DNA of 64,000 nt. Source: Phycisphaerae bacterium. GTDB taxonomy: Bacteria > Planctomycetota > Phycisphaerae > SM23-33. Of this stretch, positions 2,087 through 56,595 are shown piece after piece. Position numbers and translations under genes: made by a program. Numbering within the stretch: position 1 is the first letter of the stretch; each line of letters opens with the position of its first letter. The stretch covers positions 10,240 to 74,239 of the forward strand of contig JAIORC010000188.1 in the NCBI GenBank assembly GCA_021108335.1, in the 5' to 3' direction. Under the pieces are notes generated by a model. That model made no database searches, was not told where the DNA came from, and saw only the letters and a list, made by a program, of their open reading frames with translations.

Positions 2087-2090
2087 AATT

Positions 2091-32826: not shown

Positions 32827-32873
32827 CAGTCAGTTGATCTGGATTATCCTCCACAGGGCAGGAGGAATTCCAC

Positions 32874-35816: not shown

Positions 35817-35961
35817 CAGGTAGTTGATCCAAATATTTTTGGGACAGGTATTTGCATTGTCGGCCAGGTTTGGATTGGCATTTATGTGGATTGAGTAACC
35901 GCTGATGCCCGGCTGTGGTAGAACTATGGTTGAATTGAATTAAGAGAAAGTGGAGTCGAGC

Positions 35962-38521: not shown

Positions 38522-41080
38522 ATGCGTGCAACACTCAAAATTACTTTATGCCTGTTTTTACTGATGGCCTTCTGCGCGAAGTCCCTGGCTTCGCCCAAGG
38601 TAATTCTCGAGGACGATTTCTCGGGAACGAAGATCAATTCTCGCAAGTGGACGGTACGCGTTCCCAAGACGAAGGGCAGTTTCGCCAAAATTGAAAACGG
38701 CGTGCTGCATGTTCTTGCCTGCGACAAAGAGGCATCGATAGCTACGCGGCCGGCAATACCGGCTGCTCACATATTGGAGTTTGATTACCTGCAGCCGTCG
38801 ACAGAGATGCGTGGCGGCTACCAGAACAACATATCGTTTCAGACGATAAAAAGGCAACCGGGGCGGTGGGGTGGCGTGTTATGGTATATCGAGAGATCCG
38901 GCGTTACATACAGTCTGTGCGGCGGAATGTGGGGCAGGAAGGAAACACTTGGCAAGAAATTCCCGGTGATAAACAACAAGTGGTATCGGGTTCAGATATA
39001 CAATTTCATGGGAAGCACCATGATTGTTCTGCGCGATAAGGCTACAGGCAAGATCGAAAGCAAAACTGTTTTTCAACATGATCCCTCGTCGGATGGGCGC
39101 ATATTTTTCAAGGCGGCATCGACCAGAAAAGGAAGTCGCTGGGGATTCAAACTCGATAACGTGCGGATTACTTCAGGAGGTGGGACTCTCGATAAAGCAC
39201 CTGCCGCGCTGTTGCCTGCGCAAAAGCCGCGAGTCGGTAAAAGCTGGCAGCCCATGATGCTTGCAGGCAGGAGTTTCTGGCATCTCGCCTACTACAATCC
39301 TGTTCAATGGAAGGCCTGGGGCATGAGCGACCTGCCGCTTTTCGCGGAATCGGCATGGATGGCTGCGCCGCAGGATGCGGAGCTGCTTGGCCAGGGTAAG
39401 AGACCTTACACGCTGAAACCCAGAGGCAAAAACGCCGCAAGCATCGCGAAAAACGCCGGCAACGAGTTTTTGGGCTTCTATCCGACTCTGAATGAATGGG
39501 GCGATGTTCTTCTCAGGTCTGGGCCATGGAAAAAAATGAAGATCAAATCCAGGTACGAGGGGGTTGCGGCGCTGGAACAAATGTACAAAAAGAGAGCCGC
39601 GTCCGCACCGGTAAGCAAGGATATTTTTTCGTGGGTAGGCTACAAGCCTTTCAATCATCAGGCATGTGAGTGGGGCGCGCGAGCGCTGATCGTCGAAACC
39701 GGAGAAACGATCCCCTGCACCAATCTCCAGATTGCATTCATACGTGGAGCGGCAAGGGAATACGGCAAACCCTGGGGCGTGGATATTTCCGCATGGTTGT
39801 TCGGCGCCATGACCAACTACGTTCCGGTACAGGATTTCGTCACGGCACGCTCTGGCCCGTTTTCCGGTCATTCGGTATCTTTTCATAAGAGGATGTCGTA
39901 TGTGTCCTGGCTCACCGGGGCAAACTACCTCCTGTACGAAGAGCGCAGGGCTTTGGCAGTCAACGAAAACGATGTACGCCAGGTATATGGATACGCCCGC
40001 GACAAGGCCCACGACCGCTGGATACTTTCGCCGATCGGCGACGTGGCAAGCAAGCTGTTCAAACTTGCCGCAGTGAAAGATCGAGGCACACCTTACACGC
40101 CGGTAGCCGTCATGGTCGATTTCGCCCACGGCTGGTCGCCGGTAGGCTGTTCGGCGCACAAGATATGGGCAAAGCTTCCCTATACCAGTGGCGACCAGAT
40201 GATAAATGAGTTCTTTAACACGATCTTTCCCTGGAACCCCGACCGCAACTACAGCGTGCAAGGTGCTCGAAAGCCGGGGCGCACCGAGCAGGGATTCCTC
40301 ACGTCAACTCCCTACGGCGACATCTTCGACGTGTTCACGAACAAGTCATACCGCACGATAGACGAATATCGTGTATTGATGATGGTGGGTGATGTGCGGA
40401 TCGACAAAGCCCTGGCGGCGAAGCTTATGGAGTACGTCAAAAGTGGCGGGGCGCTGGTTATCAACGCGAAGCAACTCGGGGCACATCTGCCGGCGGAGTT
40501 TGTCGGTGCTAAGCTGACGGGGCAAAGCGGCACAGCCAAGGCTGCCCTGTGCAAACTTGACGGCAAGAAGCTCGCCGGCTCGGCATTCAGCTACGCCAAG
40601 GTGGAATTGACAACCGCCAAGCCGATTATTACAGCCGATGGTAGCGGCGACGTGCTGGCCTGCATTAACGAGGTCGGCAAGGGCAGAGTTGTTCTCACGA
40701 CGCCACCTTATTTTCTCGACAAGAAGAACCGTGTACTGCCCATGCTAGGGCATCTGTTGAAACACCTCACCAGCGGCCTGCTGCCGGTGCGCGTCAGCAA
40801 GGGTGTGGAGTATACGGTCAACCGCACGCAGGACGGCTGGGTTGTGGGACTGATCAACAACAAGGGCATCTACAAATCGCCGACCGGTCCGCCGAAAATC
40901 AAGCCCGAAGAAGAAATAGCCGTAATGGTGCGTCTCGACGGTGTTGCAACGCAGGCTACCGAATGGCTCACCGGCAAGAAGCTGAAAATGAAAACCATGA
41001 AAAATACCACAACGGTTACGCTTTCCGTCCCAGTCGGCGACGTTCGGATTGTTGAGTTCCGTACCCGACAGGAAGATTAA
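38522..41080 (+). CDS. Family B paralog 2
   Basis: About 65% identical to 35962-38520 throughout, with RBS ggagaaataac ATG. The 38504 ORF start is a TTG artefact upstream. Confidence 0.6.
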   Translation: MRATLKITLCLFLLMAFCAKSLASPKVILEDDFSGTKINSRKWTVRVPKTKGSFAKIENGVLHVLACDKEASIATRPAIPAAHILEFDYLQPSTEMRGGYQNNISFQTIKRQPGRWGGVLWYIERSGVTYSLCGGMWGRKETLGKKFPVINNKWYRVQIYNFMGSTMIVLRDKATGKIESKTVFQHDPSSDGRIFFKAASTRKGSRWGFKLDNVRITSGGGTLDKAPAALLPAQKPRVGKSWQPMMLAGRSFWHLAYYNPVQWKAWGMSDLPLFAESAWMAAPQDAELLGQGKRPYTLKPRGKNAASIAKNAGNEFLGFYPTLNEWGDVLLRSGPWKKMKIKSRYEGVAALEQMYKKRAASAPVSKDIFSWVGYKPFNHQACEWGARALIVETGETIPCTNLQIAFIRGAAREYGKPWGVDISAWLFGAMTNYVPVQDFVTARSGPFSGHSVSFHKRMSYVSWLTGANYLLYEERRALAVNENDVRQVYGYARDKAHDRWILSPIGDVASKLFKLAAVKDRGTPYTPVAVMVDFAHGWSPVGCSAHKIWAKLPYTSGDQMINEFFNTIFPWNPDRNYSVQGARKPGRTEQGFLTSTPYGDIFDVFTNKSYRTIDEYRVLMMVGDVRIDKALAAKLMEYVKSGGALVINAKQLGAHLPAEFVGAKLTGQSGTAKAALCKLDGKKLAGSAFSYAKVELTTAKPIITADGSGDVLACINEVGKGRVVLTTPPYFLDKKNRVLPMLGHLLKHLTSGLLPVRVSKGVEYTVNRTQDGWVVGLINNKGIYKSPTGPPKIKPEEEIAVMVRLDGVATQATEWLTGKKLKMKTMKNTTTVTLSVPVGDVRIVEFRTRQED

Positions 41081-41082
41081 TA

Positions 41083-41243
41083 CCGGGCGCACAAAATTAG
41101 TGCGATCGCGAGTAAAATGTCTAATGACTAAAAAAACACGCTGGGTGGCATGGCGACACCGCAGGGGTCGCCATGAGGGATGGCGTAGGAATTGCGTGGT
41201 GGCCTTGTTACCTCGTCTGGCGCACTAACTTTGTGCGCCCGGT
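41083..41243. repeat. MITE-like element: REP-like hairpin flanked by 23-bp inverted repeats
   Basis: accgggcgcacaaaattagtgcg at 41083-41105 versus cgcactaactttgtgcgcccggt at 41221-41243 (22/23 complementary). Inside lies gggtggcatggcgacaccgcaggggtcgccatga (41144-41177), identical to the copy at 13135-13170. Confidence 0.5.
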
Positions 41244-41323: not shown

Positions 41324-44263
41324 ATGCGCTGGAAATTATTGGTTTTGACGGGCTTTATGGCGATGTTTTTCGTTGGCGCCTCGGTTGCGGACGCCGCGGA
41401 GGACAAGCCGGTTTTGTGCATACGCAAAACGCCCCGCCCGCCGGTAATTGACGGGAAGCTGGACAAGGGCGAATGGGCCGGCCGCGGCGAAATTCCCCTG
41501 GTTCGCCTGCACAGCGGAAAGGGTAACGCGTCGCAGCCGGCCAAGGCTTTTGTTACTTATGACGATAAGAACCTGTATTTCGGCGTGCGTTGCGCCGAGT
41601 CGAACATCGGCAAAATAAAAGCCAATGTCAAGGAGCACAACGGCGATATCTGGTATGACGACGATATTGAAGTATTTATCGATACGAATCACGATAAGAT
41701 CAGCTATCACCAATATGCCGTCAATTCCATCGGCACGCAGTGGGACCGCGATTCGTCGAAAAAGGGAGCCTGGAAAGCGGCGGCGAAGGTGTATGCCGAT
41801 CACTGGGTCGTGGAGATAGCCATACCTTTTACCGTACTCGGGATAACGCCGGACGACGGTCTGGTTTGTGGATTTAATCTCACCCGTACGCGGCCTGGTA
41901 AGCCGACTGAGGTAAGCACCTGGTCTCCCCAGAAAGGGTCGATTCACGCCCCGGCGCGCTTCGGCTATCTGGTTTTCGGTACTCTCAAGGCTGCCGCCGA
42001 CCGTAAGGGGAAGCTGCTCCGGGCACAGTTGGACGCGCTGACTGGGGAGACAACCGCAAAGGCCGCTTTGCTTAAGCAGGTTAAAGCGATGGAGAATTTG
42101 GTTCGGAAGGGCGAGAGTTTCAAAGTGGCCCGATATCAGGCTATTCGCAAATCGGCGGCGGCGATTGAAAAGAAGATTGAGGCACTGGCGCGAGCGGAGC
42201 TGGTCGCGAAATTAACTGCCGGAGATACGGGAAAGAAACACCTTCTGACTTCCGCCGCTGCGCGAAGCGGTTATGACGTGCCGGGCAACTGGCGGATGCG
42301 AAAAATTCTGGGCAAGGAATTCTGGCATGATATTTCATATCACAGGATGCCAATGTTCAAGCAGGCAGGCCTCGCGGACGAGCCGTTTATAAAAAACGCG
42401 ATGCCGGCGATTCGCACCCGGGGCAGTGCAACTTTCGAGCGTGTTTTTTTTGATCCCAAATCCGCGACTCGAAAAATGCTGAAAAGTACCGGCAAGCCGT
42501 TTTGCGTAGCATCTGCCGGCGGCAGCTTCGCCCTCGGCCTTGAGCCTTCGGTATGCCGCAGATTCATCAAGGAGTACGGCAAGCAGTTCGCCGGTTTCGT
42601 TGCGGACGAATGCTTCGGGCATGATGCCCGGAAAAAATGGCCTCGCATGAATCTCCCCATGCCGAAAACCCGGCACGAAGCGTTTCTGGGATTTGCCGCG
42701 CAATTTCTGGAGCGCCGGAGGGTGGCTTTCCACAATTGGGCGCTTTGCTACGTGGAATTCCGGCCTTGGGCGATATGCACGTTCTCCACACCCCTCGATC
42801 ATTATGCGCTCGAACTCGGCCCGATCAAGATGGCCGGCACGGAAATCGGTGGGCATATGAAAAGCATGGCCATGATTTTTGCTTTCTCGCGGGGAGCCTC
42901 GCGTCAATACGATAAGCCCTGGCGGATGTATCTCGCCGTCTTTGGGCCGGGTGTTATCTCGGATTCGACACAGGGCTATCGCGTTCTGTCGCCGCGGTGC
43001 CGCAACGCGGCCCCCACCTCTTTCTGGGATACCGGGCCGAATAGCGGCACTTCTTTGTCGCTGCAAAAACGGCAGATACTGTCTGCGTATATGTCCGGGA
43101 TGAATATGTTCCACGACGAGGGCGACAGCGATTGCGGTTCGCTTTACGTCGCCAATTACGACTATCGGAAAATTGACAGCGTCGACGACCTTGTGATCGT
43201 ATTGCGGGACACGCCGCATTGCCTGTCGCCGGCGGGAGCAATCCGCAAGGAGTTCCATGACAATATTGTCAATACGCGCGACCGCGGCGTAATTTATACG
43301 CCGGTAGCCCTGATTTTCGACCGCTTTCACGGATACATGCCCAAGCACTATCAGGATCGGATTCTGGGAGTGATTCCGTACAAAGAGGCTGACTACATGA
43401 TGCGGGCGGTCAATCAGACGCTGTTTCCGTGGGAGCATCGCTCCGGCGAGCAGCAGGCGATGGTTACCGGCCCGTTCGGCGACATGTTCGACGTTTTGAC
43501 CAACAACGCTGAGAGCGAAGTGCTGAGTACTTACGGGGCGGCGATGCTTGTCGGCAATGTCGAGATGAACGGGTATTTCGTGCAAAGGCTCATCAAGTAC
43601 GTCGAGAACGGCGGAACGCTGATTATCAACGCCAGGCAGATCAACGGTAGATTGCCGGAAAAATTTCTCGGCTGCAAAGTAACGAAAAAACGAGGCCGGG
43701 GCAAAATAGCGTTCAGTAACCTTGATAAGTCGGTAATCGTCGAACGCAAGCCCTTCAACTTCCAATACCTCAAGCCGACAACCGCGACGACGCTTGTTTC
43801 TCTGGTCGAGGGCAACAAGAAAACCGTGCCGTTGGTGTTGTCGAACAAGTACGGCAAAGGCAGAGTGATCGTTACCGCGCCGGATTATCTTAAGGAATCC
43901 GGCAGCAAAACGCAGATGCTGAAATTGTTCAGCCATCTCATGCGGCGGCTCAACTCCGAATTGCTGCCGGTGGCGGTGGAAGGAAATGTTGAGTATATCG
44001 TCAATCGCAACAAGAGCGGCTGGGTGGTAACGCTCATCAATAACGAAGGTGTGTACAAACCACCTGGCCAAAAACCAATCGTCAAATCCGAGGAAAACGT
44101 GGTCGCGAAAGTTATTCTGAAGCGTAACGCCGCGGCGAAAGTCTCGAAAGTCAGCGAGTGGCTCACCGGCAAAGAGCTGAAACTCGCCGAAACCCCGCAG
44201 GGCATGGAAGTAACCCTCACCGTCCCAGCCGGCGATGTGCGGATTATCGAATTCGCACAATGA
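41324..44263 (+). CDS. Family A paralog 3
   Basis: True start MRWKLLVLTGFMAMFFVGASVADA, in frame with the longer 41192 ORF. CBM9-like PPVIDGKLDKGEW and a C-terminus ending IIEFAQ. Confidence 0.6.
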   Translation: MRWKLLVLTGFMAMFFVGASVADAAEDKPVLCIRKTPRPPVIDGKLDKGEWAGRGEIPLVRLHSGKGNASQPAKAFVTYDDKNLYFGVRCAESNIGKIKANVKEHNGDIWYDDDIEVFIDTNHDKISYHQYAVNSIGTQWDRDSSKKGAWKAAAKVYADHWVVEIAIPFTVLGITPDDGLVCGFNLTRTRPGKPTEVSTWSPQKGSIHAPARFGYLVFGTLKAAADRKGKLLRAQLDALTGETTAKAALLKQVKAMENLVRKGESFKVARYQAIRKSAAAIEKKIEALARAELVAKLTAGDTGKKHLLTSAAARSGYDVPGNWRMRKILGKEFWHDISYHRMPMFKQAGLADEPFIKNAMPAIRTRGSATFERVFFDPKSATRKMLKSTGKPFCVASAGGSFALGLEPSVCRRFIKEYGKQFAGFVADECFGHDARKKWPRMNLPMPKTRHEAFLGFAAQFLERRRVAFHNWALCYVEFRPWAICTFSTPLDHYALELGPIKMAGTEIGGHMKSMAMIFAFSRGASRQYDKPWRMYLAVFGPGVISDSTQGYRVLSPRCRNAAPTSFWDTGPNSGTSLSLQKRQILSAYMSGMNMFHDEGDSDCGSLYVANYDYRKIDSVDDLVIVLRDTPHCLSPAGAIRKEFHDNIVNTRDRGVIYTPVALIFDRFHGYMPKHYQDRILGVIPYKEADYMMRAVNQTLFPWEHRSGEQQAMVTGPFGDMFDVLTNNAESEVLSTYGAAMLVGNVEMNGYFVQRLIKYVENGGTLIINARQINGRLPEKFLGCKVTKKRGRGKIAFSNLDKSVIVERKPFNFQYLKPTTATTLVSLVEGNKKTVPLVLSNKYGKGRVIVTAPDYLKESGSKTQMLKLFSHLMRRLNSELLPVAVEGNVEYIVNRNKSGWVVTLINNEGVYKPPGQKPIVKSEENVVAKVILKRNAAAKVSKVSEWLTGKELKLAETPQGMEVTLTVPAGDVRIIEFAQ

Positions 44264-44311
44264 CAATCAGTTGATCTGGATATCCTTCCAGGGCAGGAGG
44301 AATTCAACACA

Positions 44312-47300
44312 TTGGGAAAGGTAAATCACGTGCGAGCGAGCTTTATCAATATATTATGGTTCCTGTTGTTCCTGGGTGGGAACGTTGGGCTATTGCAGGC
44401 TCGCGAATCGGTCTGCCTCAACGGCGTGTGGCGGTGTCAGGAGGCTAAAGATAATAAGGCGCCCTCTGGCGACTGGCATTACATAAGGGTCCCGCACCGG
44501 CTTCGCTTGGGCGTGTTCGATATAACCGATTCCGGGGGCAGGGTCATACCGGGCAGCGACGAGTTACAGAAAAACGCCGTCCGTTTCTGGTTTCAGAGAG
44601 ACGTGGTCGTTCCGAAAAAATGGATTGGCAAGAAAATTTTTCTCCGTTTCGGCTCGGTCGGTGTCTACGCCAAAGTGTTGGTGAACGGCAAGGTCGCCGG
44701 CGAGCATTACGGCGAAAGCACGAGTTTTAAGTTCGATATTACGAATCTCGTAACGCCGGGCAAGAAATGCGTTATCTCCGTTCTGGCTCTAAACCGCAAA
44801 GCCGTCGGCAAGACCGTTCCCGGCGGTGGTTCCGGCGGATACGCGGGGATTCGCGAAGATGTATTTCTCGATGCCTTGCCGCAGACCCGCGTCGAAAACC
44901 TGCATATCATCACGTCATTCCGAGAGAAAACAATCAAGGTGAAAACCTGGGTGCGAAACGACGGGGACAAACGCAAAAAAATAACGCTCACAGCTTTTGT
45001 ACTTAAAGACGGGAAGGAAGTTAAAAAGCTTCCTGCCCAAGAGTTCTGGTTGAAGCCGGGGCAAAGCAGGGAAATCGAGACGATACAGAAATGGATCGCC
45101 CCCCGGCTGTGGACGCATGAAACCCCTCATCTTTACAATCTCCGAACGGAGTTGCGTTCCGGCGGCGAAGTCGTCGATACGCTGACGACGCGATTCGGGT
45201 TTCGCGAGTTCTGGGTGGAAAAGGATTCGTTTTATCTGAATGGCGCCAAGGTACATCTCCTGGGCGAGGGAACGCTGGGCCCTTCCCGTCATTTTCTGAC
45301 TCCGGAGACTACCAGGGCATGGGTAAGGCTGCTCAAGGACAGCAATCATAATTGCGTTCGTTTCCACACCGGCCCAGCCCAGCCGTGGGTCTGGGACATC
45401 TGCGACGAGGAAGGGATACTCGCGGTTTCCCAATCGTCATTTTTTCAATTAAGCCGCAACGATGTCAACCCCCCGGAATTCTGGAAAAACATGAAGACCG
45501 AAATCGATGAGTGGATACCGGCCGATCGCAATCACCCCAGCATAATCATGTGGAATGCGGATAACGAAATCCACCACCTGAAATATTCGCTCCGGCTGAA
45601 AAAGATGATCAATAAATATGACGCCACCAGGCCGATCCAATACGGCGGCGACTCCGCGTACAAGACGTCCATGCCGCATTGTCTCGGTAACAAGGACTAT
45701 TATGACAGCCCGGAAGTGGAGGTGTTGAGTACGTATTTTTATGCCTGCTACGGCTATGCCGCCGGTGGAGAGGGACAAAGCTACGGATTCCAGGACCTGC
45801 TCAAGCGTGAGAAATGGCCGCCGGTGTGGCAGAAACTGACGGACAAACCCATCGTAATCGACGAGTTCAGCTATCCGTACGATTTTTGCGACGTGAAAAT
45901 GCTGCGAAACAAAGACCGCAAAGGCCACGTCGCGTGGCTCATCGGCGACGAAGCATACCTGGAAGCGGGCGACTATGACGCAAGGGGGCTTAATGTCAAG
46001 GCGATCAGTTTTGGTGACAGCGCGGTCAAGTCGCGAGTCTATTCGCCCACCTACATAAAAGCCAGGTCGCTGATTGGGGAGGATCTGCTTTCTGCCTGGC
46101 GGTGCTATGACTTTGCCGGCATCGTGGAGTTTGAAAGCTTCTGCCTGACCGCAAATGCCTGGTACGACTTCAGCGCGATCAAACTGAACTACACTCCCGA
46201 AGAGCTTGCCTTGCCAGGCATGAGGCCGAAGTGCCCCGCGGCTTTTTTTCGTGGCGACTCGTTTCTTAACACCTGCAAACCGGAGCTGCCGCCGTACCGG
46301 CCAAACAAACTCTTTCACACCGTAAAAAAAGCCTTCGCGCCAATATTCCTCTATCTCGGCGGCGATATGGAAATAGCGAATAAGAGGCATGTCTGGTTCG
46401 CGGGCGACGATATGAGGAAAACGCTTTGCCTGATCAACGACCGCCTCGATAAGAAAGTTTTCAGGCTTTATCTCGGTTTCGAGGATTCCTCCGGCAAAGT
46501 TTACCAGACGATAAATAAAACGCTTACGCTGCTTCCCGGCGAAGTGAAAAGGCAAAAGGTAAAATTCAACATTCCAGATTTCGCGGCAAAAACAAAATGC
46601 CGGGTCAAAATAATCGCTGTGTCCGACGGCGAGGAATATAAAAGGGATTTTGCGGTTACCGTATTCCCCAAACCGGGCTGTTTGAAAACAGTTTGCAAAA
46701 TAGGCGTCCGCGGTGACAGCCTCGCGGGGTTGCTTGGCAAGAGGATGGCGGGGATCGTTCCGGTGAAGACCATGGCCGAAATCGAGCAATGCGACATTGT
46801 CTTCTGCGACAGTGCCGACTGGCTGGAACGGGAAGCCGAAAAGGCGGAGAAGTTCATGCGTAAAGGAGGAATGATAGTTTGCCTCTGTCGCGAATCCGTC
46901 GCCGGTGTGGAGGTGGATAGGTTCACGGTGAAGAATCTTTTTCCGCGTGCGAAAGGCCATCCGCTTTTAGGCGGCATCGACGCCGACGACCTCGCGAGAA
47001 TGGAAATAACCGCCCTGCCGATGTGGGCAAAGCCCGAGCGGGGTGCTTTCCGCCCCATTATCGACGGCGGTTACAGGCTGGACTACGCGTCGATGCTCGA
47101 GTTTGTCATTGGCAAGGGCAGGCTTGTCTGCCTTTCCCTGCCGGTCCGGGAGTACGGTGCAGAGCCGATCATTACCACGCTGGTCGACAATTGCGTCCGC
47201 TACCGTGACAGCCTTGTTGCCAAATTATTACCGGCGGCTTATATGGGCGGCGCCGAAGGCGCGGCGTTTCTCGCGGGGCTGGGCCTGACGCTTCCGAAAG

Positions 47301-48652
47301 TCGAAAATCCGGGGCAGGCCGGGGTTTTGTTCGTCGGTGCGGACGTGTCCGACAAGCTCGCCAAAATAACGGAATTTGTGAAAAAGGGCGGCAAGGCCGT
47401 TTTCCTGAAACGTCAAAACTTTGATAATTTGCCGTTCGATTTGAACGTGGCAAAAACAAAAACTAATCGCCTCAATTTTCGCCGCCGTCCGCCGTTGATG
47501 CGGGGGATAGCCAATGCGGATTTATACTGGGATGAGGAAGTGGAAGTTTTGGCTTTCAACAGGTTCCCGATCCATGCTTTCGCTACTCGTCCGGCGGCTT
47601 TGCTCCAAATACCCTATGGCGGCGAGTTCGTATTTCTGCAACTCGATAAAAAGGATATCGCCGCGATAGGCCCGCGGGCGAACCGGGCGGTGTCGATTAT
47701 GCTGACCAATTTGGGTGTGGAATGCAAAGTTCCCCCCACCTGGAAGATCACCGCTTCCGATCCGGTTGCGATAGACGCCTCGATTAAGCCGGGCGAGGGT
47801 TTGCAGGTTTCAGCCGCGATTTTGCTACAGAATTATTCGTGGCAAGCCACTCGCGGCGAGTTGAAAGCAAAATTCTCCGGCCGGGAAACGTCGCAAAAAA
47901 TCAGCCTGCCTGCTAAAAGGCGAAAACGCGTACTGGTGCCGCTTGCGGCTGAATTGGGCGATATTTCCGCAACGTTGAAGCTGGCTGCAAAGCCGGACAC
48001 GGGCGAAACGGTTGAAACAGAAACATTGGCAAAAGCAATTGTGATACCGCACATCCGACAAGGGAGTATTACAATCGACGGGCGGCCTGGCGACAAGGAA
48101 TGGAAAAAAACCGCTGCTACAAAGCGTTTTGTCAGGCTGAACAAGAGATTTAAGCCATTGAACCAGAATGCCGTAGCCCGTATGGCATATGACGAAAAAA
48201 AACTTTATATCGCCATCAAGTGCGACGAGTCTCAAATTGACGCTTTGCGAGCACAACACTCCGTAACCGTGCATGACGGGCCGGTGTGGGAGGACGACGA
48301 ATTGGAAGTGTTCCTGAGCACTGGCAGCGATCCGGCAAAATATTTCCATTTCCTCGTCAATTCGATTGGGACGAGGGCGGACGAAATGAAGCTGGACAAA
48401 AAATGGAGCGGCCAATGGCAGGCTGCCACGTCGATCGGCAAAAACGGATGGACTGCGGAAATATGCATCCCGTTCAAATCGCTGGGGCAAAAAGCACCTG
48501 CGTCGGGAACTGTGTGGCGGCTTAACCTGTGTCGCTCAAGGCGGGTTGGGAAAGCCGAATATTCCGTCTGGTCGCAGACCAACGGCGGGTTCCACAAATC
48601 GGGAAAATTCGGATACCTGATTTTCGGAGGCAAATTCCCCGATGGTGGCTGA
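44312..48652 (+). CDS. Glycoside hydrolase family 2 (beta-galactosidase/beta-mannosidase-like) with large C-terminal extension ending in a CBM9-like module
   Basis: GH2 N sugar-binding domain (FWFQRDVVVPKKWIGKKIFLRFGSVGVYAKVLVNGKVAGEHYGESTSFKFDITN) and TIM barrel with NCVRFHTGPAQPWVWDICDEEGILAV and HPSIIMWNADNEIHH (acid/base NE). The last ~200 aa (ITIDGRPGDKEWKK...WTAEICIPF...GKFGYLIFGG) match the CBM9-like N-modules of family A. TTG start. The signal peptide is near-identical to that of 32874. Confidence 0.8.
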   Translation: MGKVNHVRASFINILWFLLFLGGNVGLLQARESVCLNGVWRCQEAKDNKAPSGDWHYIRVPHRLRLGVFDITDSGGRVIPGSDELQKNAVRFWFQRDVVVPKKWIGKKIFLRFGSVGVYAKVLVNGKVAGEHYGESTSFKFDITNLVTPGKKCVISVLALNRKAVGKTVPGGGSGGYAGIREDVFLDALPQTRVENLHIITSFREKTIKVKTWVRNDGDKRKKITLTAFVLKDGKEVKKLPAQEFWLKPGQSREIETIQKWIAPRLWTHETPHLYNLRTELRSGGEVVDTLTTRFGFREFWVEKDSFYLNGAKVHLLGEGTLGPSRHFLTPETTRAWVRLLKDSNHNCVRFHTGPAQPWVWDICDEEGILAVSQSSFFQLSRNDVNPPEFWKNMKTEIDEWIPADRNHPSIIMWNADNEIHHLKYSLRLKKMINKYDATRPIQYGGDSAYKTSMPHCLGNKDYYDSPEVEVLSTYFYACYGYAAGGEGQSYGFQDLLKREKWPPVWQKLTDKPIVIDEFSYPYDFCDVKMLRNKDRKGHVAWLIGDEAYLEAGDYDARGLNVKAISFGDSAVKSRVYSPTYIKARSLIGEDLLSAWRCYDFAGIVEFESFCLTANAWYDFSAIKLNYTPEELALPGMRPKCPAAFFRGDSFLNTCKPELPPYRPNKLFHTVKKAFAPIFLYLGGDMEIANKRHVWFAGDDMRKTLCLINDRLDKKVFRLYLGFEDSSGKVYQTINKTLTLLPGEVKRQKVKFNIPDFAAKTKCRVKIIAVSDGEEYKRDFAVTVFPKPGCLKTVCKIGVRGDSLAGLLGKRMAGIVPVKTMAEIEQCDIVFCDSADWLEREAEKAEKFMRKGGMIVCLCRESVAGVEVDRFTVKNLFPRAKGHPLLGGIDADDLARMEITALPMWAKPERGAFRPIIDGGYRLDYASMLEFVIGKGRLVCLSLPVREYGAEPIITTLVDNCVRYRDSLVAKLLPAAYMGGAEGAAFLAGLGLTLPKVENPGQAGVLFVGADVSDKLAKITEFVKKGGKAVFLKRQNFDNLPFDLNVAKTKTNRLNFRRRPPLMRGIANADLYWDEEVEVLAFNRFPIHAFATRPAALLQIPYGGEFVFLQLDKKDIAAIGPRANRAVSIMLTNLGVECKVPPTWKITASDPVAIDASIKPGEGLQVSAAILLQNYSWQATRGELKAKFSGRETSQKISLPAKRRKRVLVPLAAELGDISATLKLAAKPDTGETVETETLAKAIVIPHIRQGSITIDGRPGDKEWKKTAATKRFVRLNKRFKPLNQNAVARMAYDEKKLYIAIKCDESQIDALRAQHSVTVHDGPVWEDDELEVFLSTGSDPAKYFHFLVNSIGTRADEMKLDKKWSGQWQAATSIGKNGWTAEICIPFKSLGQKAPASGTVWRLNLCRSRRVGKAEYSVWSQTNGGFHKSGKFGYLIFGGKFPDGG

Positions 48653-48775
48653 AGGAAATTTCGAGTATATAGTCAACCGCAATAAGAGCGGCTGGGTGGT
48701 AACGATCGTCAACAACGAAGACGCGCTACCGGTTGAAAAGGACAAACTTTTTTACACAAACGAAAAGAGGAAAAT
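48653..48775 (+). pseudogene. Relic of the 3' end of a family A paralog (gene fragment, about 40 codons)
   Basis: Immediately after the GH2 stop the sequence translates EGNFEYIVNRNKSGWVVTIVNNEDALPVEKDKLFYTNEKRKI*. This matches the conserved C-terminal EGNVEYIVNRNKNGWVVTLINNEG of family A but lacks everything upstream. Confidence 0.6.
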
Positions 48776-48778
48776 CTA

Positions 48779-51751
48779 ATGCATGGAAAAGTATTAATTT
48801 TGACAGGTTTTATGATGTTTTTTGTTGGCGGTTCGGCTGCTGCTGCTCAGAAGGACTCTCAAGCGAAATATCTGTGCCTGAGCAAAACAGCTCGCCCGCC
48901 GGTAATTGACGGGAAACTTGGCAAAGACGAATGGGCCGGCAGCGCCAAAATTTCTGGCTTTGTGCTGAAAAGTGGTATCTGCCCCCCGAAACAACAGGCG
49001 GAGGTTTTTGTAACTTATGACGACAAAAACCTTTATATTGCCGCGCGTTACGCCGAATCTCAACCGGACAAAATCAAAGCCAATATAACACGGCACAACG
49101 GCCCGGTTTATGAAGACGATGACATTGAAATATTTATCGACACGAATTTCGACCGGAGCAGTTGTCACCAGTTTGTTACCAATCCCATCGGTACGCAGTG
49201 GGACAGCCTTGCAATGAAAAAGGGCGCGTGGTCTACAGCGTCGCAGGTGTATGCGGACTGCTGGATTACGGAGATAGCCATACCTTTTACCGTGCTCAAA
49301 ATAACGCCGGAGAAGGGGCTTGTCTGCGGGCTTAACGTCTGTCGTATGCGAAGGAGCAAGATTCCGGAGTTGAGCTGCTGGTCGCCGACGTACGGTTCTT
49401 TCCATGCGCCGGGGCGTTGCGGCTACCTGGTGTTCGGTTCTCTCAAGGACGTAGCGGCTCGCAAAGCCGGCAAGCTCAGAGCGAAACTCGCAAAGGTTAC
49501 AGGAAAAAAGAGCGCGAAAGACGCGTTGCTTAAGGAAATCGGAGAACTTGAGACGTCGGCGGGGAAAGCAGGGAGTTTTGAGGCTCGTTTCCGCAAGCTC
49601 GTCAAATCGGAAGCTGCGATAGGCGAGAAAATAACGGCGTTGAAACTATCGCCCCTGTGTGCGAAATTGATCTCCGAAAACCAGATATCCGTAAACAAGA
49701 TAAAATATCTGATTTCCTCACGTCTGACTTCCCCTGCTGCGATGAACGGTTACAAGTTCCCGGAAAACTGGCGGCTGCGGAAGACGAAGGGCAGGGATTA
49801 CTGGCATGATCTTTCATATCGCAAAATGCCCCTTTATAAGAAGGCCGGCATTGCCGATGAGCCGTTTATCAAAGACTCGCTCCTCGGGCTTTACTTTTGG
49901 AGTAACGATCAGTTCAAGAGAATGTTCTTTGACCCCAAATCCCCGACCCGGAAATTATTGAAAAAGACCGGCAGGGCGTTTTGCATACAGGCCAACGCAG
50001 GCCGGAAATATCCCTATGACATTCCACCCTCCCTGTGCCGCAGATTCCTCAAGGAATTCGGCGGGCAATTCGTTGGTTTCACCGGAGATGAATGTTACGG
50101 CCACGAGTGCGCGAAAAAATGGCCGCGTATGAAATTAAGCATGCCGAAAACCCGGCACGAATCGTTTCTGGGCTTTCTGGCTTGTTTCCAGGATCGACGC
50201 AGGCCGATGTTCCACAACTGGGCTTTGTGCATCGACGAGTTCCGTCCCTGGACAATTTGTACAAATGCGGCAAGGCTTGACCATTATGTTCACGATGCGG
50301 GAACGGTGCTGATGTCCGGCCATGAAATCGGCGGGCATCAGGTATGTAATCCGATGGCGTTTGCATTTTCGCGTGGGGCGGGGCGGCAATACGATAAGCC
50401 GTGGCGAACGTATCTGGCGGTCTGGAGCACGGGCATTGTGTGGGATTCCACCAACGGTTACGACGTACTGTCGCCGGAGTGCCGCAACTCGTTTGGCAGA
50501 GCCAATTGGGACAGAGGCCCTTACAGCGGCACGTCGCTTTCGCTGCAGTGGAGAGAAATTGCCAGCGCGCTTATGTCCGGCACGAACATGTTCCGCGACG
50601 AAGGCGACGCCGATTGCGGCTCGCTCTATGTAGCCAATTACGACTATCGCACGATTAATACCGTGGACAACCTCGTAAAAGTCCTGCGAGACAAGCCGTA
50701 CTGCATATCGCCGGCTGGCGCAATCCGCAGAGACCTCTATAACATTATCATCAAGAGGAATGATCGCGGCGCGACATACGCGCCGGTGGCCTTGGTTTTC
50801 GACCGTTATCACGGCTTTATTCTGGGGCATTATCTCAATTCCGTTCTTGGCGTGTTTCCGTACACCGAGGCGGATTACATGATGCGGGCAGTCAATCAGA
50901 CGCTGTTCCCGTGGGAGCATCGTGCGGGCGAGCACCGGGCGACGGCGACAGGCCCGTTCGGCGACATGTTCGACGTTTTGACCAACAATGCTTCTGGCGA
51001 AGTGTTCGACACTTACGGGGCAGCGATGCTTGTCGGGAATGTCGAGATGGACGGGAATTTTGTGAAAAAGCTCGTCAACTACGTCAAAAACGGCGGAACG
51101 CTGATTGTCAACGCCAAACAGATCAACGGCAACCTGTCGGAAAGGCTCCAGAAATTCCTCGGCTGCAAGGTAACGGAAAAGCGAGGCCGGGGCAAAATGG
51201 CGTTCAGCAATCTCGACAATTCAATGATACTGGAAAAAAAGCCCTTCAACTTCCAGTACCTTGAACCGACAACCGCGACGCCGCTCGTTTCCCTGATCAA
51301 GGGAGACAAGAAAACCGCTCCGCTGGTACTGTCGAACAAATACGGCAAGGGCAGGGTGATTGTTACCGCGCCGGATTATCTTAAGGTACCCGGCAGCAAA
51401 ATGCGGATGCTGAAATTGTTCAGCCATCTCATGCGACAGCTCAACTCCGAGCTGCTGCCGGTGAAGGTGGAGGGGAACGTTGAGTATATCGTCAACCGCA
51501 ACAAGAACGGCTGGGTGGTAACGCTTATCAATAACGAGGGCGTGTACAAATATCCCGGCAAAGAGGAAATTATCAAATCCGCGGAAAACGTCGACGCAAA
51601 GGTTACCCTTAAGCGTAACGCTGCGGCGAAGGTTTCGAAAGTCAATGAATGGTTTACTGGCAAAGAGCTGAAACACGCCGAAACCCCGCAGGGCACGGAA
51701 GTAACCCTCACCGTCCCAGCCGGCGACGTTCGGATCGTCGAATTTGAATGA
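48779..51751 (+). CDS. Family A paralog 4
   Basis: Signal peptide, CBM9-like PPVIDGKLGKDEW, conserved core, and a C-terminus ending VRIVEFE. Confidence 0.6.
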   Translation: MHGKVLILTGFMMFFVGGSAAAAQKDSQAKYLCLSKTARPPVIDGKLGKDEWAGSAKISGFVLKSGICPPKQQAEVFVTYDDKNLYIAARYAESQPDKIKANITRHNGPVYEDDDIEIFIDTNFDRSSCHQFVTNPIGTQWDSLAMKKGAWSTASQVYADCWITEIAIPFTVLKITPEKGLVCGLNVCRMRRSKIPELSCWSPTYGSFHAPGRCGYLVFGSLKDVAARKAGKLRAKLAKVTGKKSAKDALLKEIGELETSAGKAGSFEARFRKLVKSEAAIGEKITALKLSPLCAKLISENQISVNKIKYLISSRLTSPAAMNGYKFPENWRLRKTKGRDYWHDLSYRKMPLYKKAGIADEPFIKDSLLGLYFWSNDQFKRMFFDPKSPTRKLLKKTGRAFCIQANAGRKYPYDIPPSLCRRFLKEFGGQFVGFTGDECYGHECAKKWPRMKLSMPKTRHESFLGFLACFQDRRRPMFHNWALCIDEFRPWTICTNAARLDHYVHDAGTVLMSGHEIGGHQVCNPMAFAFSRGAGRQYDKPWRTYLAVWSTGIVWDSTNGYDVLSPECRNSFGRANWDRGPYSGTSLSLQWREIASALMSGTNMFRDEGDADCGSLYVANYDYRTINTVDNLVKVLRDKPYCISPAGAIRRDLYNIIIKRNDRGATYAPVALVFDRYHGFILGHYLNSVLGVFPYTEADYMMRAVNQTLFPWEHRAGEHRATATGPFGDMFDVLTNNASGEVFDTYGAAMLVGNVEMDGNFVKKLVNYVKNGGTLIVNAKQINGNLSERLQKFLGCKVTEKRGRGKMAFSNLDNSMILEKKPFNFQYLEPTTATPLVSLIKGDKKTAPLVLSNKYGKGRVIVTAPDYLKVPGSKMRMLKLFSHLMRQLNSELLPVKVEGNVEYIVNRNKNGWVVTLINNEGVYKYPGKEEIIKSAENVDAKVTLKRNAAAKVSKVNEWFTGKELKHAETPQGTEVTLTVPAGDVRIVEFE

Positions 51752-51833: not shown

Positions 51834-53621
51834 ATGCGAATTCATAATTGGTTGTGTTTTCTTTTGATAGTAGCGTGGATGTTCTGCGCTGGCGTATCTT
51901 GGGCGCAGTCGCCTCGTCCCAAATATACTTGTTATAAGATCCCCAAAGGGGCCGTCAAAATCGATGGTGTCCTGGACGAAAAGTGCTGGTCGCGGACTCC
52001 GTGGCTGGACTTGCGGAACACGAAAACCGGCAAACGCATTGCCTATCCGTCGAAAGTGCGAATGTTGTGGGATGACAAATATCTCTACGCGGGCTATGAC
52101 GTAGGCTATGTGGATGTGTTCGGCAAGGAGACGAAAAGAGACACGCCTTTCTATAAAAAAAAAGAAATGTTCGTAAAGCTTTTTCTGGACCCTGACGCAA
52201 ACGGCACGGATGTTTTTGAAATCCATGTTTCGCCGCGGAATTGCGTGTACGATGTCCGACAGGCTATCCCGAACCATAATCAAAATCCCCCTGGCACAGT
52301 AGCCGCCAAGTGGAACTGCAAGGGGCTTCTCAGTGCGGTTCGTATTAACGGAACCCTGAATAATTCAGCTGATGTGGATCGAGGATATACCGTGGAGCTG
52401 GCTATTCCGTGGGCGTCGATACGCAAATTCACGATTGGCAAGTGCCCTCCCTCGCCGGGGGACCGTTGGGCTGTAAGTCCGCAATGTCGGTATTTTCTGC
52501 AACCGTCGAAGAATGGAATATGCCGCGGCAAAGCGTATTATGCCAGTTGGCCGAAACTCGGTATTATTGATTCACATGTTTATGACAGGTATGGACATAT
52601 GATTTTTTCATCACAAAGCCCCAGAATGCTCGAATGGAAACTAGCCTGGATATGGACCCTGCCGTCGAAAACCGACGCGCAGATCGAAGACGCCGTCGTC
52701 AAGGCCAAAGCAATGGGCTTCAATGCGATAGCGTGGAATGCCAGGTGGAAACCGTTCATTCACGCGTGCAGAAAACATGGCATGCAAGCATATGCCGTTA
52801 TCTCCCCAGATTACGGGAAAGCCTGGGGAACCACAAAGCACGAACAGGTAATGCTTCCTGGAGAGGAGAAATTACCCTCCAGTCGCAAAGATAATCCAAC
52901 TTATCAGGAAGGCGGCGAGCCGCTTGGAGGAGCTATAGGAACAGAAATCCGCCGAGCCACTTTGCCTTGTTTCAGGCATCCGCATGTCCTTGAACAATTC
53001 CGCAAAAAAATTCGCCAAAGCGTGGATCGAGGCTATTCGGGAATTGCCTTCGATTGGATTGGTTACAAGAATCTTCACGGGTGTTACTGTGAACACTGCA
53101 AGCGGCTTGCCCGTAAGGCGGCCCCGCCCGGAATGTCTCCGCAGGAGGCAGACCGCCGGTTTCAAGAGGAAACGCTCACGCAATTCTACAAGAACATATG
53201 CGATTACGCCAAATCCTACGCTAAATCCCTGAACAGGACCGTCAAAACCACATGCCATGTCTACCCGGCCTTTTTACCGAACAATCTCTATGGTAACAAG
53301 CTGCCGGTGGACTATTGCGGCCAGACGGTTTCGTGGTTTTTCAAGCCTCATTGGAAATTCGAGAAAATCGAACGCTACACGCGGTACGTCGTGGAGAATG
53401 ACTCTTTGTACCACCGGCACAGTGTAGGTGCGCCTTTTATCGCTTTCTACGGCAAGGGAACCTTCGCTGTCGATGTCAAGTCGGCTGGGCGTGTTAGAAA
53501 AGAGATTCAAATTATCAAGAAATGCGGTGCAAGGGCTATCCAGTTTGCCGAACTGGGGAATATTCTGGCAGTCCCTGCTGTCGCCAAGGTTGTCACAGAA
53601 GAGCTTAATGACCAAGAATAA
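51834..53621 (+). CDS. Secreted CBM9-like N-module fused to a putative TIM-barrel glycosidase-like domain containing a Cys cluster
   Basis: Signal peptide; CBM9-like VKIDGVLDEKCW...LFLDPDANGTDVFEIHV...YTVELAIPWASI; C-terminal ~330 aa with GFNAIAWNARWKPF...GYSGIAFDWIGYKNLHGCYCEHCKRLA. Confidence 0.45.
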   Translation: MRIHNWLCFLLIVAWMFCAGVSWAQSPRPKYTCYKIPKGAVKIDGVLDEKCWSRTPWLDLRNTKTGKRIAYPSKVRMLWDDKYLYAGYDVGYVDVFGKETKRDTPFYKKKEMFVKLFLDPDANGTDVFEIHVSPRNCVYDVRQAIPNHNQNPPGTVAAKWNCKGLLSAVRINGTLNNSADVDRGYTVELAIPWASIRKFTIGKCPPSPGDRWAVSPQCRYFLQPSKNGICRGKAYYASWPKLGIIDSHVYDRYGHMIFSSQSPRMLEWKLAWIWTLPSKTDAQIEDAVVKAKAMGFNAIAWNARWKPFIHACRKHGMQAYAVISPDYGKAWGTTKHEQVMLPGEEKLPSSRKDNPTYQEGGEPLGGAIGTEIRRATLPCFRHPHVLEQFRKKIRQSVDRGYSGIAFDWIGYKNLHGCYCEHCKRLARKAAPPGMSPQEADRRFQEETLTQFYKNICDYAKSYAKSLNRTVKTTCHVYPAFLPNNLYGNKLPVDYCGQTVSWFFKPHWKFEKIERYTRYVVENDSLYHRHSVGAPFIAFYGKGTFAVDVKSAGRVRKEIQIIKKCGARAIQFAELGNILAVPAVAKVVTEELNDQE

Positions 53622-53631
53622 GGAAAATATT

Positions 53632-56595
53632 ATGCATGGAAAAGTATTAATTTTGGCAGGTTTTATGGCGATGTGTTTCGTTGGCGGTTCGGTTATTGCT
53701 GCCGGGAAGGACTCTCAAGAGAAATATCTGTGCATCAGCAAAACCGCTCGCCCGCCGGTAATTAACGGAAAGCTTGGTAAGGACGAATGGGCCGGCAGCG
53801 CCAAAATCTCCGGCTTTGTGCTGAAGGGCGGAATCGGTGCCCCGACGCAACAGACGGAAGTCTTTATCACTTATGACGACAAGACTTTTTACTTTGCCGC
53901 GCGTTGCCTCGAATCGAGCATGGATAAAATCAGAACCAGGGTAAAGGAGCACAACGGGGCGGTTTATAATGACGATAACATCGAGTTGTTTATCGATACG
54001 AATTATGATCGATACAGCTATCGGCAGTTTGTCCTGAATTCCATCGCCACGCAGTGGAGCGATGATATATCGAAAAAGGGAGCATGGTCCGCGGCTGCGA
54101 AGGAGCGCGATGACTGCTGGGTCGTGGAAATGGCCATACCCTTCACCCAGCTTGGCATGACGCCGGAAAAGGGGCTTGTCTGCGGGCTGAACATCTGTCG
54201 TATCCGATGGGGCAACAGGAAGCCGGAGCTGAGTTGCTGGTCGCCGACGTACGGTGGGTTTCATTCGCCGGGACATTTCGGCTGCATGGTCTTTGGTTCT
54301 TTCCAAGAAGTAGCAGCCCGTGAGGCCGGCAAACTCAGGGCGCGGCTTGACAAGATTACGGCGAAAGATTCTGACAAGGCCCCAGTGCTTGCAGAGATTA
54401 AAAAGCTGGAGGATTCGGTCAAGCCGGACGAAAAATTCGACGTAGACCGATATCGGGCGCTCCGCAAATCGGCCGAGGCCATTGGTGAAAAAATAGTAGA
54501 CCTTGGGTTGTCGGACTTGCGCGCGAAATTGACCGGCGCCGGCACGGTGGAAACGCAGCATCTGACTTCTGCCGCCTCACGGGGCAATTACAAGTTCCCG
54601 GAAAACTGGCGGAGCCGGAAGATTCTGGGGCAATATGAATTCCTGCACGATCTCTCGAATCACAAAAAGTCCCTTTACAAAAAAGCCGGGCTTGCGGATG
54701 AGCCTTTTATCAAGGACGCTCTTATGGGGGTTTACGTCCTGCACAATAAGATGTTCAAGAAGAAATTCTTCGACCCCAAATCCCCTATCCGAAAAGAGCT
54801 GAAAAAAACCGGCAGACCGTTCTGCATAAACGCCCTGGTCGGTAATAAGCGTATCAGCGACATTCCGCCTTCCCTGTGCCGCCGATTCATCAAGGAATAC
54901 GGCGACCAGTTTGTCGGTTTTATCGCGGACGAAAGCTTTGGCCATAACGCCCATAAAAAATGGAAGCATCTGGGGGTAAGCAAGCCGAAAAACCGGAAAG
55001 ACGCGTTTATGGTTTTTGTAGCCTGTGCGTTGGATCGGCACACGAAGATTTTCCGCAACTGGGCCTTGGGCCATACTGAATTCCGCAACTGGTCGGTTTG
55101 CACGTTTTCGGATCCGCTGGACCATTTAGCGCTTGAAACCCATAACCTCGTGATGTCCGGCCATGAAATCGGTGGATTTGTGCCGTGTACGCCTTTGTTG
55201 TTTGCTTTTTCCCGTGGTGCGGCAAGGCAATACGATAAGCCGTGGAGGACGTACCTGGCGGTTTGGGGGCCGGGCGTGGTTTGGGGTTCTGTAAAGGGCT
55301 ACAATGTATTGTCGCCCCGATGTCGCACACCGTTTCATCGGCCAACGTGGGAGAGAGGCCCGTACTGCGGCACGTCGCTTTCGCTTCAGAAGCGACAAAT
55401 TCTTGCGGCCTACATGTCGGGCACAAACATATTCCGCGATGAAAGCGATGCCGATTGCGGTTCGCTCTATGTCGCCCATTACGACCATCGCACCATTGAT
55501 ACCGTTGACGACCTCGTGCTGGTATTGCGGGACCAACCCTACGCCCTTTCGCCGGCCGGTGAGATTCGCAAGGAGCTCCACGACAATATCGTCAAGAAGC
55601 ATGATCGCGGCGCGGCCTACACGCCGGTGGCGCTGGTCTTCGATCGATATCACGGGTATATGTCCACACACTATCGCGACCAGATACAAGGCCTGATCCC
55701 ATACACCGAAGCGGATTACATGATGCGGGCGGTCAACGATACGCTGTTCCCGTGGGATCATCGCACGGGCGAGCGGAAGACGATGGTAACCGGGCCTTTC
55801 GGCGACATGTTCGACGTTCTGACAAACAACACTCCCGGCGAAGTGCTTGACACGTATAAAGCGGCGATGCTTGTTGGGGATGTCGCTCTGGACGGGAGCT
55901 TTGTGAACAAGCTCGTCAAGTACGTCAAAAACGGCGGAACGTTGATTATTAACGCCAAACAGATCAAAGGCAAGCTGCCGAAAAAATTCCAGGAAATGCT
56001 CGGCTGCAAGGTAACAGAAAAACGCGGCAAGGGAATCACGGTGTTCAGCAAACTGGATAATTCGGTGATACCGGAGAAAAAATCCTTCAACTTCCAATAC
56101 CTTGAGCCGACAACCGCGACACCGCTCGTTTTCCTGGTCGAAGGTGACAAAAAAACCGTGCCGCTGGTGTTGTCGAACAAATACGGCAAGGGCAGAGCGA
56201 TCGTTACCGCGCCGGATTATCTTAAGGAATCCGGCAGCAAGACGCGGATGCTGAAATTGTTCAGCCATCTCATGCGGCATCTCAACTCCGAACTGCTGCC
56301 GGTGAAGGTGGAAGGAAATGTTGAATATATCGTCAACCGCAACAAGAACGGCTGGGTGGTAACGCTCATCAACAACGAGGGCGTGTACAAATATCCCGGC
56401 AAAAAAGAAATCGTCAAATCCGAGGAAAACGTCATCGCGAAAGTTACTCTGAAGCGTAATGCCGCCGCGAAAGTCTCGAAAGTAGGCGAGTGGCTCACAG
56501 GCAAAAAGCTGAAATCCGCCGACACCCCACAGGGGACGAAAGTAACTATTACCGTTCCGGCTGGCGACGTGCGGATTATAGAATTCGAGCAATAA
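53632..56595 (+). CDS. Family A paralog 5
   Basis: True start MHGKVLILAGFMAMCFVGGSV, in frame with the 53428 ORF. About 85% identical to paralog 1 in the CBM9-like region. Confidence 0.6.
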   Translation: MHGKVLILAGFMAMCFVGGSVIAAGKDSQEKYLCISKTARPPVINGKLGKDEWAGSAKISGFVLKGGIGAPTQQTEVFITYDDKTFYFAARCLESSMDKIRTRVKEHNGAVYNDDNIELFIDTNYDRYSYRQFVLNSIATQWSDDISKKGAWSAAAKERDDCWVVEMAIPFTQLGMTPEKGLVCGLNICRIRWGNRKPELSCWSPTYGGFHSPGHFGCMVFGSFQEVAAREAGKLRARLDKITAKDSDKAPVLAEIKKLEDSVKPDEKFDVDRYRALRKSAEAIGEKIVDLGLSDLRAKLTGAGTVETQHLTSAASRGNYKFPENWRSRKILGQYEFLHDLSNHKKSLYKKAGLADEPFIKDALMGVYVLHNKMFKKKFFDPKSPIRKELKKTGRPFCINALVGNKRISDIPPSLCRRFIKEYGDQFVGFIADESFGHNAHKKWKHLGVSKPKNRKDAFMVFVACALDRHTKIFRNWALGHTEFRNWSVCTFSDPLDHLALETHNLVMSGHEIGGFVPCTPLLFAFSRGAARQYDKPWRTYLAVWGPGVVWGSVKGYNVLSPRCRTPFHRPTWERGPYCGTSLSLQKRQILAAYMSGTNIFRDESDADCGSLYVAHYDHRTIDTVDDLVLVLRDQPYALSPAGEIRKELHDNIVKKHDRGAAYTPVALVFDRYHGYMSTHYRDQIQGLIPYTEADYMMRAVNDTLFPWDHRTGERKTMVTGPFGDMFDVLTNNTPGEVLDTYKAAMLVGDVALDGSFVNKLVKYVKNGGTLIINAKQIKGKLPKKFQEMLGCKVTEKRGKGITVFSKLDNSVIPEKKSFNFQYLEPTTATPLVFLVEGDKKTVPLVLSNKYGKGRAIVTAPDYLKESGSKTRMLKLFSHLMRHLNSELLPVKVEGNVEYIVNRNKNGWVVTLINNEGVYKYPGKKEIVKSEENVIAKVTLKRNAAAKVSKVGEWLTGKKLKSADTPQGTKVTITVPAGDVRIIEFEQ

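Follow-up and report, generated by a model that had tools for sequence, protein, structure and literature searches.

Glycosidases of family GH2 with variable C-terminal modules, such as 6ED1, 5T98 and E. coli LacZ, are built from the same three domains and carry a common acid/base motif. Modules of the CBM9 type, of which CBM9-2 of T. maritima Xyn10A (1I82) is a solved example, are C-terminal in many enzymes. Where paralogous genes are arranged in tandem arrays, deletion or illegitimate recombination can leave gene remnants behind. Here we describe a GH2 gene with a C-terminal CBM9 module that lies within an array of paralogs in the genome of an uncultured Phycisphaerae bacterium, and that terminates inside the remnant of a lost paralog.

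The source is a short-read metagenome-assembled genome (NCBI locus tags K8S55_082xx). The window comprises 64,000 nucleotides (nt) of contig JAIORC010000188.1 (assembly GCA_021108335.1, positions 10,240–74,239 of the forward strand), and all coordinates given below are those of the window. A same-strand gene array spans 29860–56595, and its members are secreted paralogs. Five of them, referred to here by their start positions (29860, 32874, 41324, 48779 and 53632), constitute family A, with 60–85% protein identity among them. The GH2 open reading frame (ORF; 44312–48652) begins with a TTG start codon and encodes 1446 amino acids (aa). The family-A genes and all the features of the GH2 locus are on the + strand.

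An earlier reading of the DNA (the original prediction) held that the GH2 gene had captured the CBM9 module of a family-A gene that was then deleted, leaving a stump behind. The key link in that scenario proves to be wrong, and the locus is one of ordinary turnover within a paralog array. There is indeed a stump, and the 5′ end of the GH2 gene is also of family-A type; the CBM9 module between them is not.

The relic at the 3′ end of the GH2 gene

Of a lost family-A gene, 29 codons (87 nt) survive as the relic (48639–48725), which is in the +1 frame with respect to GH2. Its nucleotide identity to each of the five paralogs is 82–88% over 56–87 nt (blastn, E down to 2e-23; blastx, E 1.6e-11), and at the protein level 20/26 to 20/28 amino acids are identical. 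The relic is collinear with the conserved EGNVEYIVNRNKNGWVVTLINN block of family A in both nucleotide and protein sequence, identifying it as a piece of that family. It corresponds to family-A residues ~893–921 of ~990, ending ~70 residues short of the C-terminus, and this block is the most conserved of the family (97% aa identity). Past 48725 the collinear identity to family A is 25–30%, which is the level expected by chance, ruling out a relic that stretches to 40–45 codons. A stump of a lost family-A gene at this position was correctly anticipated by the original prediction, the matches to the five paralogs lying far above chance and the substitutions being pseudogene-like. Its dimensions are different from those proposed, i.e. 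40 codons that form the extreme C-terminus of family A and begin three codons after the GH2 stop.

The relic begins before that stop. Where family A reads CCG GTG GCG GTG GAA, the relic reads CCG ATG GTG GCT GAA, and in the GH2 frame the DNA is read as CCC GAT GGT GGC TGA. The codons for PDGG at the end of GH2, and its TGA, therefore consist of relic DNA. The tail KFPDGG with its TGA stop (48632–48652) is atypical, and from 48639 onwards is relic DNA read out of frame. On its 3′ side the relic is followed by a spacer (48726–48767) that has no significant match in the window. No family-A fragments were found in the other spacers of the array.

The relic differs from each paralog by 9–11 nonsynonymous and 3–7 synonymous codons out of 30, compared with 0–4 nonsynonymous and 2–9 synonymous differences between pairs of paralogs in the same 30 codons. 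Six residues that are invariant in all the intact copies are changed in the relic. The pattern of substitution fits a non-functional, neutrally decaying remnant of a genuine gene. The relic is separated from the paralogs by a synonymous distance like that between the paralogs themselves, and its parent was therefore a crown-group family-A gene.

The relic overlaps a 45-aa ORF (K8S55_08245; 48642–48779) that is annotated by NCBI as a hypothetical protein and is also called in the record of the European Nucleotide Archive (ENA). The ATG of the ORF is located 8 nt ahead of the GH2 stop, with GGAGG 11 nt upstream of that ATG; at the other end, the TAA of the ORF shares bases with the start codon of gene 48779 (TAATG). 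The layout of 48626–48779 is compatible with translational coupling. It is very unlikely that the ORF has been kept open for a function, either in coupling GH2 to gene 48779 or as a small protein. Such a function would account for the close spacing at both ends and for the calling of the ORF in both records, and the same 45-aa sequence is found in the Logan assembly described below. Yet an open frame was inherited in 29 of the 45 codons, and the other 16 would be open by chance in about half of cases. Moreover, the substitutions are pseudogene-like, gene 48779 has a ribosome-binding site of its own (GAGGA), and there is no homolog with which conservation could be compared. K8S55_08245 is most simply read from its sequence as a pseudogene fragment, with no sign of selection.

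The 5′ end of the GH2 gene

In the spacer ahead of the gene and in the signal peptide, GH2 (44208–44410) and gene 32874 (32771–32975) share ~90% DNA identity, a finding that goes beyond the original prediction. The spacer (48 nt; 44264–44311) contains an AGGAGG ribosome-binding site and is homologous to that between genes 29860 and 32874. Alignment of 44208–44388 with 32771–32953 gives 90.7% identity over 183 nt (blastn), and the matching tract runs from the end of the family-A gene that precedes GH2, through the 48-nt spacer, to ~codon 26 of GH2. Compared with gene 32874, the DNA is 98% identical in codons 1–15, 82% in codons 16–26 and 57% in codons 27–33, where five of the seven amino acids still match. 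The likeness in amino acid sequence extends to codon 33 (LLQARES in GH2, MLQADES in gene 32874), and is random from codon 34, where the GH2_N domain begins. The longest exact repeat is ~46 nt. The start codons differ, GH2 having TTG and gene 32874 ATG followed by CTG.

The GH2 signal peptide (codons 1–33, MGKVNHVRASFINILWFLLFLGGNVGLLQARES; 44312–44410) is of the gene-32874 type, whereas the signal peptides of the other family-A genes are different; within this GH2 family, a signal peptide is absent from some homologs. The alignments show that the ribosome-binding site and putative signal peptide of GH2 are of the family-A type seen in gene 32874. With this tract on the 5′ side and the relic on the 3′ side, family-A sequence borders the block formed by GH2, linker and CBM9 at either end, the two stretches sharing one orientation and following the order of a family-A gene. 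The calling of start codons in the array differs with the source; NCBI begins gene 32874 at Met28 (953 aa), whereby the signal peptide is lost.

The junctions are probably not artefacts of assembly. Independent assembly of run SRR15668623 by Logan yielded a contig that is 100% identical to the window over 44329–48946 and so crosses both junctions of the relic. All the assemblies are derived from short reads, which leaves a small residual doubt about the relic junctions. It is extremely unlikely that the relic or the family-A-like 5′ end arose from a chimeric join of paralogs or strains. Such a join might be suspected in a short-read metagenome-assembled genome, particularly since a related population of low coverage is present in the same sample and the relic is located within the most conserved block of its family. 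However, the relic differs by 18–26% from every paralog and from the same-sample relative, and is therefore not a copy introduced by a chimeric join. In addition, the exact repeat at the 5′ side is short and the Logan contig is identical across both relic junctions. The ENA record of the locus (ERZ26872896 NODE_61, 88 kb, coverage 28; an 88,360-nt contig) and that of NCBI (longest contig 89,895 nt) share both the GH2 and the 45-aa proteins.

The CBM9 module

The last part of the GH2 protein is a complete module with the CBM9 fold (aa 1237–1440; 48020–48631), as identified using Pfam, AlphaFold and Foldseek. Pfam places CBM9_1 (PF06452) at aa 1255–1405 with 39.9 bits (cut-off 23.4). In the AlphaFold model the per-residue confidence (pLDDT) is >90 for aa 1240–1439, and the fold includes the last strand (GYLIF). 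The best Foldseek match is 1I82_A, the CBM9 of T. maritima Xyn10A (E 4e-12, TM score 0.76); this and 7NWN, which is also a CBM9, are the top matches (E ~1e-11 to 1e-12, TM score 0.73–0.76). The GH2 module thus has the same predicted fold as CBM9-2 of Xyn10A, at ~20% sequence identity to 1I82, and a search of the PDB by sequence (phmmer) gave no direct match to the module, 1I82 included. It departs from 1I82 in its 8-residue tail (GGKFPDGG following the last strand), which is atypical and arises from junction and relic DNA. In 21 of 33 native cases, C-terminal CBM9-like modules end 1–2 residues past the F of FGxLxF. The unusual length of the tail suggests that the original stop codon of GH2 was lost at the junction.

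That the GH2 protein ends in a ~200-aa module homologous to the N-terminal CBM9 of family A is borne out, with 33–42% identity to those of the five paralogs. This is an ordinary distance inside the very large CBM9 family. When 1.84 billion cluster representatives were searched exhaustively with HMMER, 13,387 relatives of the GH2 module were found, many of them 40–50% identical. The local family-A modules rank 58th, 136th, 138th, 141st and >150th among these, so that at least 57 unrelated representatives of 50%-identity clusters outscore the best local paralog. In a neighbour-joining tree (41 taxa, 189 columns) that includes six family-A modules, one of them from the same-sample relative, the family-A modules are monophyletic without GH2 in 98 of 100 bootstraps, while just one of the 100 places the GH2 module as sister to them. 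Its neighbours in the tree are modules of unrelated enzymes from metagenome-assembled genomes of Planctomycetota and Victivallaceae. When the region is checked by nucleotide alignment against the family-A genes (blastn), the CBM9 region has almost no similarity, compared with 82–88% in the relic. These sequence comparisons show that the GH2 module has no specific relationship to the CBM9 modules of family A and lies outside their clade.

The proposal that the GH2 module derives from the lost family-A gene itself, as its N-terminal CBM9, and that an internal deletion then removed the body of that gene and left the stump, is consequently improbable. It has some attractions. The signal peptide, CBM9 and relic are collinear with a family-A gene, the family-A modules are the nearest to that of GH2 within the window, and the CBM9 of gene 32874 is itself just 42–45% identical to its paralogs. 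Against this stand the tree, the database ranking and the lack of nucleotide similarity, while the synonymous distances place the parent of the relic within the crown group of family A. The linker that precedes the module has no counterpart in family A, the spacer or the signal peptide. Furthermore, an internal deletion within a gene located downstream, offered by the original prediction as the simplest reading, could not by itself have removed the GH2 stop, the spacer and the family-A signal peptide.

The linker and the C-terminal slot

The linker (~100 aa; aa 1138–1236; 47723–48019) bears a weak Ig-like resemblance to NEW3/NPCBM_assoc (PF10633). The match is below threshold (20.8 bits against a cut-off of 24.4, E 4.3e-4) and the region is modelled with pLDDT <50, so that the assignment was not accepted. 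The linker alone gave no match with phmmer, and none was found among the CBM9 matches either. An origin from family-A or spacer DNA read in another frame was also rejected, since no significant match was found anywhere in the window. Pairs of NEW3 and CBM9 are present at the C-termini of unrelated large enzymes. A word-index search using linker plus CBM9 gave one weak match and missed the query itself, and the exhaustive HMMER search was therefore used instead.

The C-terminal end of this GH2 family is a variable slot, since the closest homolog (P0002, 54% identity) ends at the position equivalent to aa 1137 and has no CBM9, while remoter homologs have other modules beyond the same point. None of the top 120 GH2 homologs has a CBM9, that of the window being the only one that does. 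It is plausible that this lineage gained the linker and CBM9 at the C-terminus of GH2 by domain accretion. The start of the contig that carries the closest homolog (L002, ERZ650341 NODE_19095, nt 1–80) translates to MIRRPPRSTPKPSSAASDVYKRQ. This stretch looks like an artefact of a library adapter, making the N-terminus of the homolog unusable for comparison of signal peptides. A candidate association of P0123 with P0002 on one contig was discarded, as they are on separate contigs of equal length.

History of the locus

The block comprising GH2, linker and CBM9 may have replaced the interior of a family-A member of the array, a reading to which we give roughly even credence. A block consisting of the mature GH2, the ~100-aa linker and CBM9 would have entered a family-A gene by illegitimate recombination, replacing the stretch from ~codon 34 to codon 892. 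The block would have retained the spacer, ribosome-binding site and signal peptide of the host gene, and the 3′ stump of that gene would have been left behind. With the frame lost at the 3′ junction, translation of GH2 ends four codons into the stump. What was left of the old gene beyond the stump, its last ~70 codons, would have been lost in a further deletion reaching to the ribosome-binding region of gene 48779. We propose more tentatively that this was a single replacement in situ, in frame at the 5′ side, that both gave the glycosidase its secretion signal and terminated it in the 3′ stump.

Both flanks are consistent with one former gene, since their orientation and family-A order agree. 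Approximately 6 of the 33 signal-peptide codons are synonymously changed, and ~10 of 30 relic codons have extra nonsynonymous changes. As rough clocks these agree with a single event, the counts being too small to decide.

Several observations weigh against the replacement. No related genome with the ancestral arrangement was found. Synteny was sought by scanning genome and metagenome contigs with the GH2 alignment, the family-A alignment and a degenerate pattern of the relic, and these scans found no relative; the family-A scan of the contigs returned distant CBM9 domains only. The order and number of the events consequently rest on inference. The sharing of the signal peptide may have run in either direction, including from GH2 to gene 32874. 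Gene 41324, which precedes GH2, is not the closest paralog of gene 29860, so that a simple segmental duplication of two genes fails to explain the junction found at both places. Gene 32874 is not singled out as the nearest paralog of the relic, and the origin of the linker was not traced. Lastly, the base composition of GH2 equals that of its neighbours and gives no sign of a recent foreign insertion, where a source within the same genome would look alike.

The main rival explanation, which we regard as rather doubtful, divides the history into independent events. The GH2–linker–CBM9 gene would be an older resident of the array, and a family-A gene downstream would have been lost by two deletions, one that took out the region of the GH2 stop and reached family-A codon ~892, and another that began at codon ~922 and stopped at the ribosome-binding site preceding gene 48779. 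The likeness of GH2 and gene 32874 at their 5′ ends would be due to a separate event, a short tract of recombination or conversion. The fall in 5′ identity from 98% to 57% towards the junction is what conversion might produce, and the absence of a specific likeness between relic and gene 32874 and the neighbour-like composition of GH2 are equally expected. The array is also dynamic, as seen in the 85% identity between genes 29860 and 53632 and in the different gene order of the same-sample relative. However, at least three illegitimate junctions are required, compared with 2–3 for the replacement. Conversion also needs homology on the right-hand side, and GH2 and gene 32874 share none past codon 33. 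The common orientation of the flanks and their family-A order would be left to coincidence.

The GH2 enzyme

The body of the enzyme (aa 34–1137; 44411–47722) comprises GH2_N, the GH2 Ig-like domain, a TIM barrel and a long C-terminal region. Pfam places the first three at aa 36–519, with PF02837 at 51.2 bits, PF00703 at 57 bits and PF02836 at 60 bits, all exceeding their cut-offs, and the protein matches GH2 structures in the PDB with E down to 7.5e-35. The sequence NHPSIIMWNADNEI is aligned with NHPSVVLWGAMNEL of 6ED1, and the NHPS..NE acid/base motif is conserved. This alignment ends ahead of the presumed nucleophile (IDEFS, E518). The gene does not have a foreign composition, with GC 0.54 and GC3 (third codon positions) 0.66 both equal to those of the neighbouring genes.

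The GH2 protein is predicted to be an exo-glycosidase, probably secreted or periplasmic and co-expressed with the family-A proteins, and the CBM9 module would probably direct it to a glycan. No terminator-like site was found in the spacer between GH2 and gene 48779, and the two are probably co-transcribed. A search of the literature on CBM9, GH2 and Planctomycetes together found nothing specific.

The surrounding array

Family-A proteins begin with a CBM9_1 domain; the body that follows has weak GH42M-like matches, and the C-terminal part is β-rich and highly conserved. The body (aa ~240–990) contains no Pfam domain above threshold, with weak GH42M-like and GLMA_2nd matches, and a family-A profile matched nothing in the PDB beyond the CBM9 part. 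Family A may be an undescribed family of enzymes. Full-length relatives were seen in this sample only. A word-index search with gene 48779 found no full-length family-A protein outside this genome; that search overlooked P0237 from the same sample, so that a restriction of family A to this genome is not robust.

Directly downstream of the GH2 locus is the intact family-A gene 48779–51751 with its ribosome-binding region (48768–51751), having a Pfam CBM9_1 domain and a weak GH42M-like match. Its start (48768–48800) is 94% identical to 53621–53653 (blastn). Genes 29860–32826 and 53632–56595 are 85–89% identical over their full extent, which indicates a recent duplication. Gene 32874–35816 is a mosaic, with a CBM9 that is 42–45% identical to those of its paralogs and residues 541–900 that are 74–84% identical; this suggests either conversion or constraint that varies along the genes. 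The mechanical ORFs that open at 41192 and 53428 are extended at the 5′ end, the true starts probably being 41324 and 53632.

The array also contains the two tandem genes of family B (35950–38520 and 38522–41080), which have 31% identity to the last two-thirds of family A and no CBM9. Their N-terminal part is different, and they have an EY.VNR..GWVV.LINN block in common with family A. A 595-aa CBM9 protein starts at 51834.

A related population of low abundance is present in the same sample (L010; ERZ26872896 NODE_12059, coverage 2.3, nt 1–3136). There an ortholog of the 374-aa gene 28734–29858 is followed directly by a gene that is most like 48779 (70–79% aa identity), unlike the order in the window, where the 374-aa gene is followed by one of the 29860 type. 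The reading frame of L010 is broken near nt 1500, which may reflect a sequencing error or a pseudogene.

Discussion

This locus is a small and clean example of turnover in an array of carbohydrate-active enzyme genes. One paralog has been lost but for a stump, and its slot is occupied by another enzyme that has secretion signals of the paralog type and a binding module gained at a variable C-terminal slot. The finding rests on one metagenome-assembled genome and opens no long-standing question. It carries a warning for annotation, since K8S55_08245 is almost certainly the fragment of a pseudogene, and the GH2 protein ends in residues read from the relic in a shifted frame.

The long C-terminal body of the enzyme is also found in many GH2 proteins of 1200–1600 aa. 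Unlike other large GH2 proteins, that of the window carries a signal peptide of the type found in a neighbouring family of paralogs. The relic resembles other gene remnants in tandem arrays of paralogs in being a short fragment of a paralog in the orientation of the array, with substitutions that reflect relaxed constraint and with intact copies adjoining. It departs from the usual remnants in that the neighbouring GH2 gene terminates inside the relic in another frame, and has paralog-type signals at its own 5′ end.

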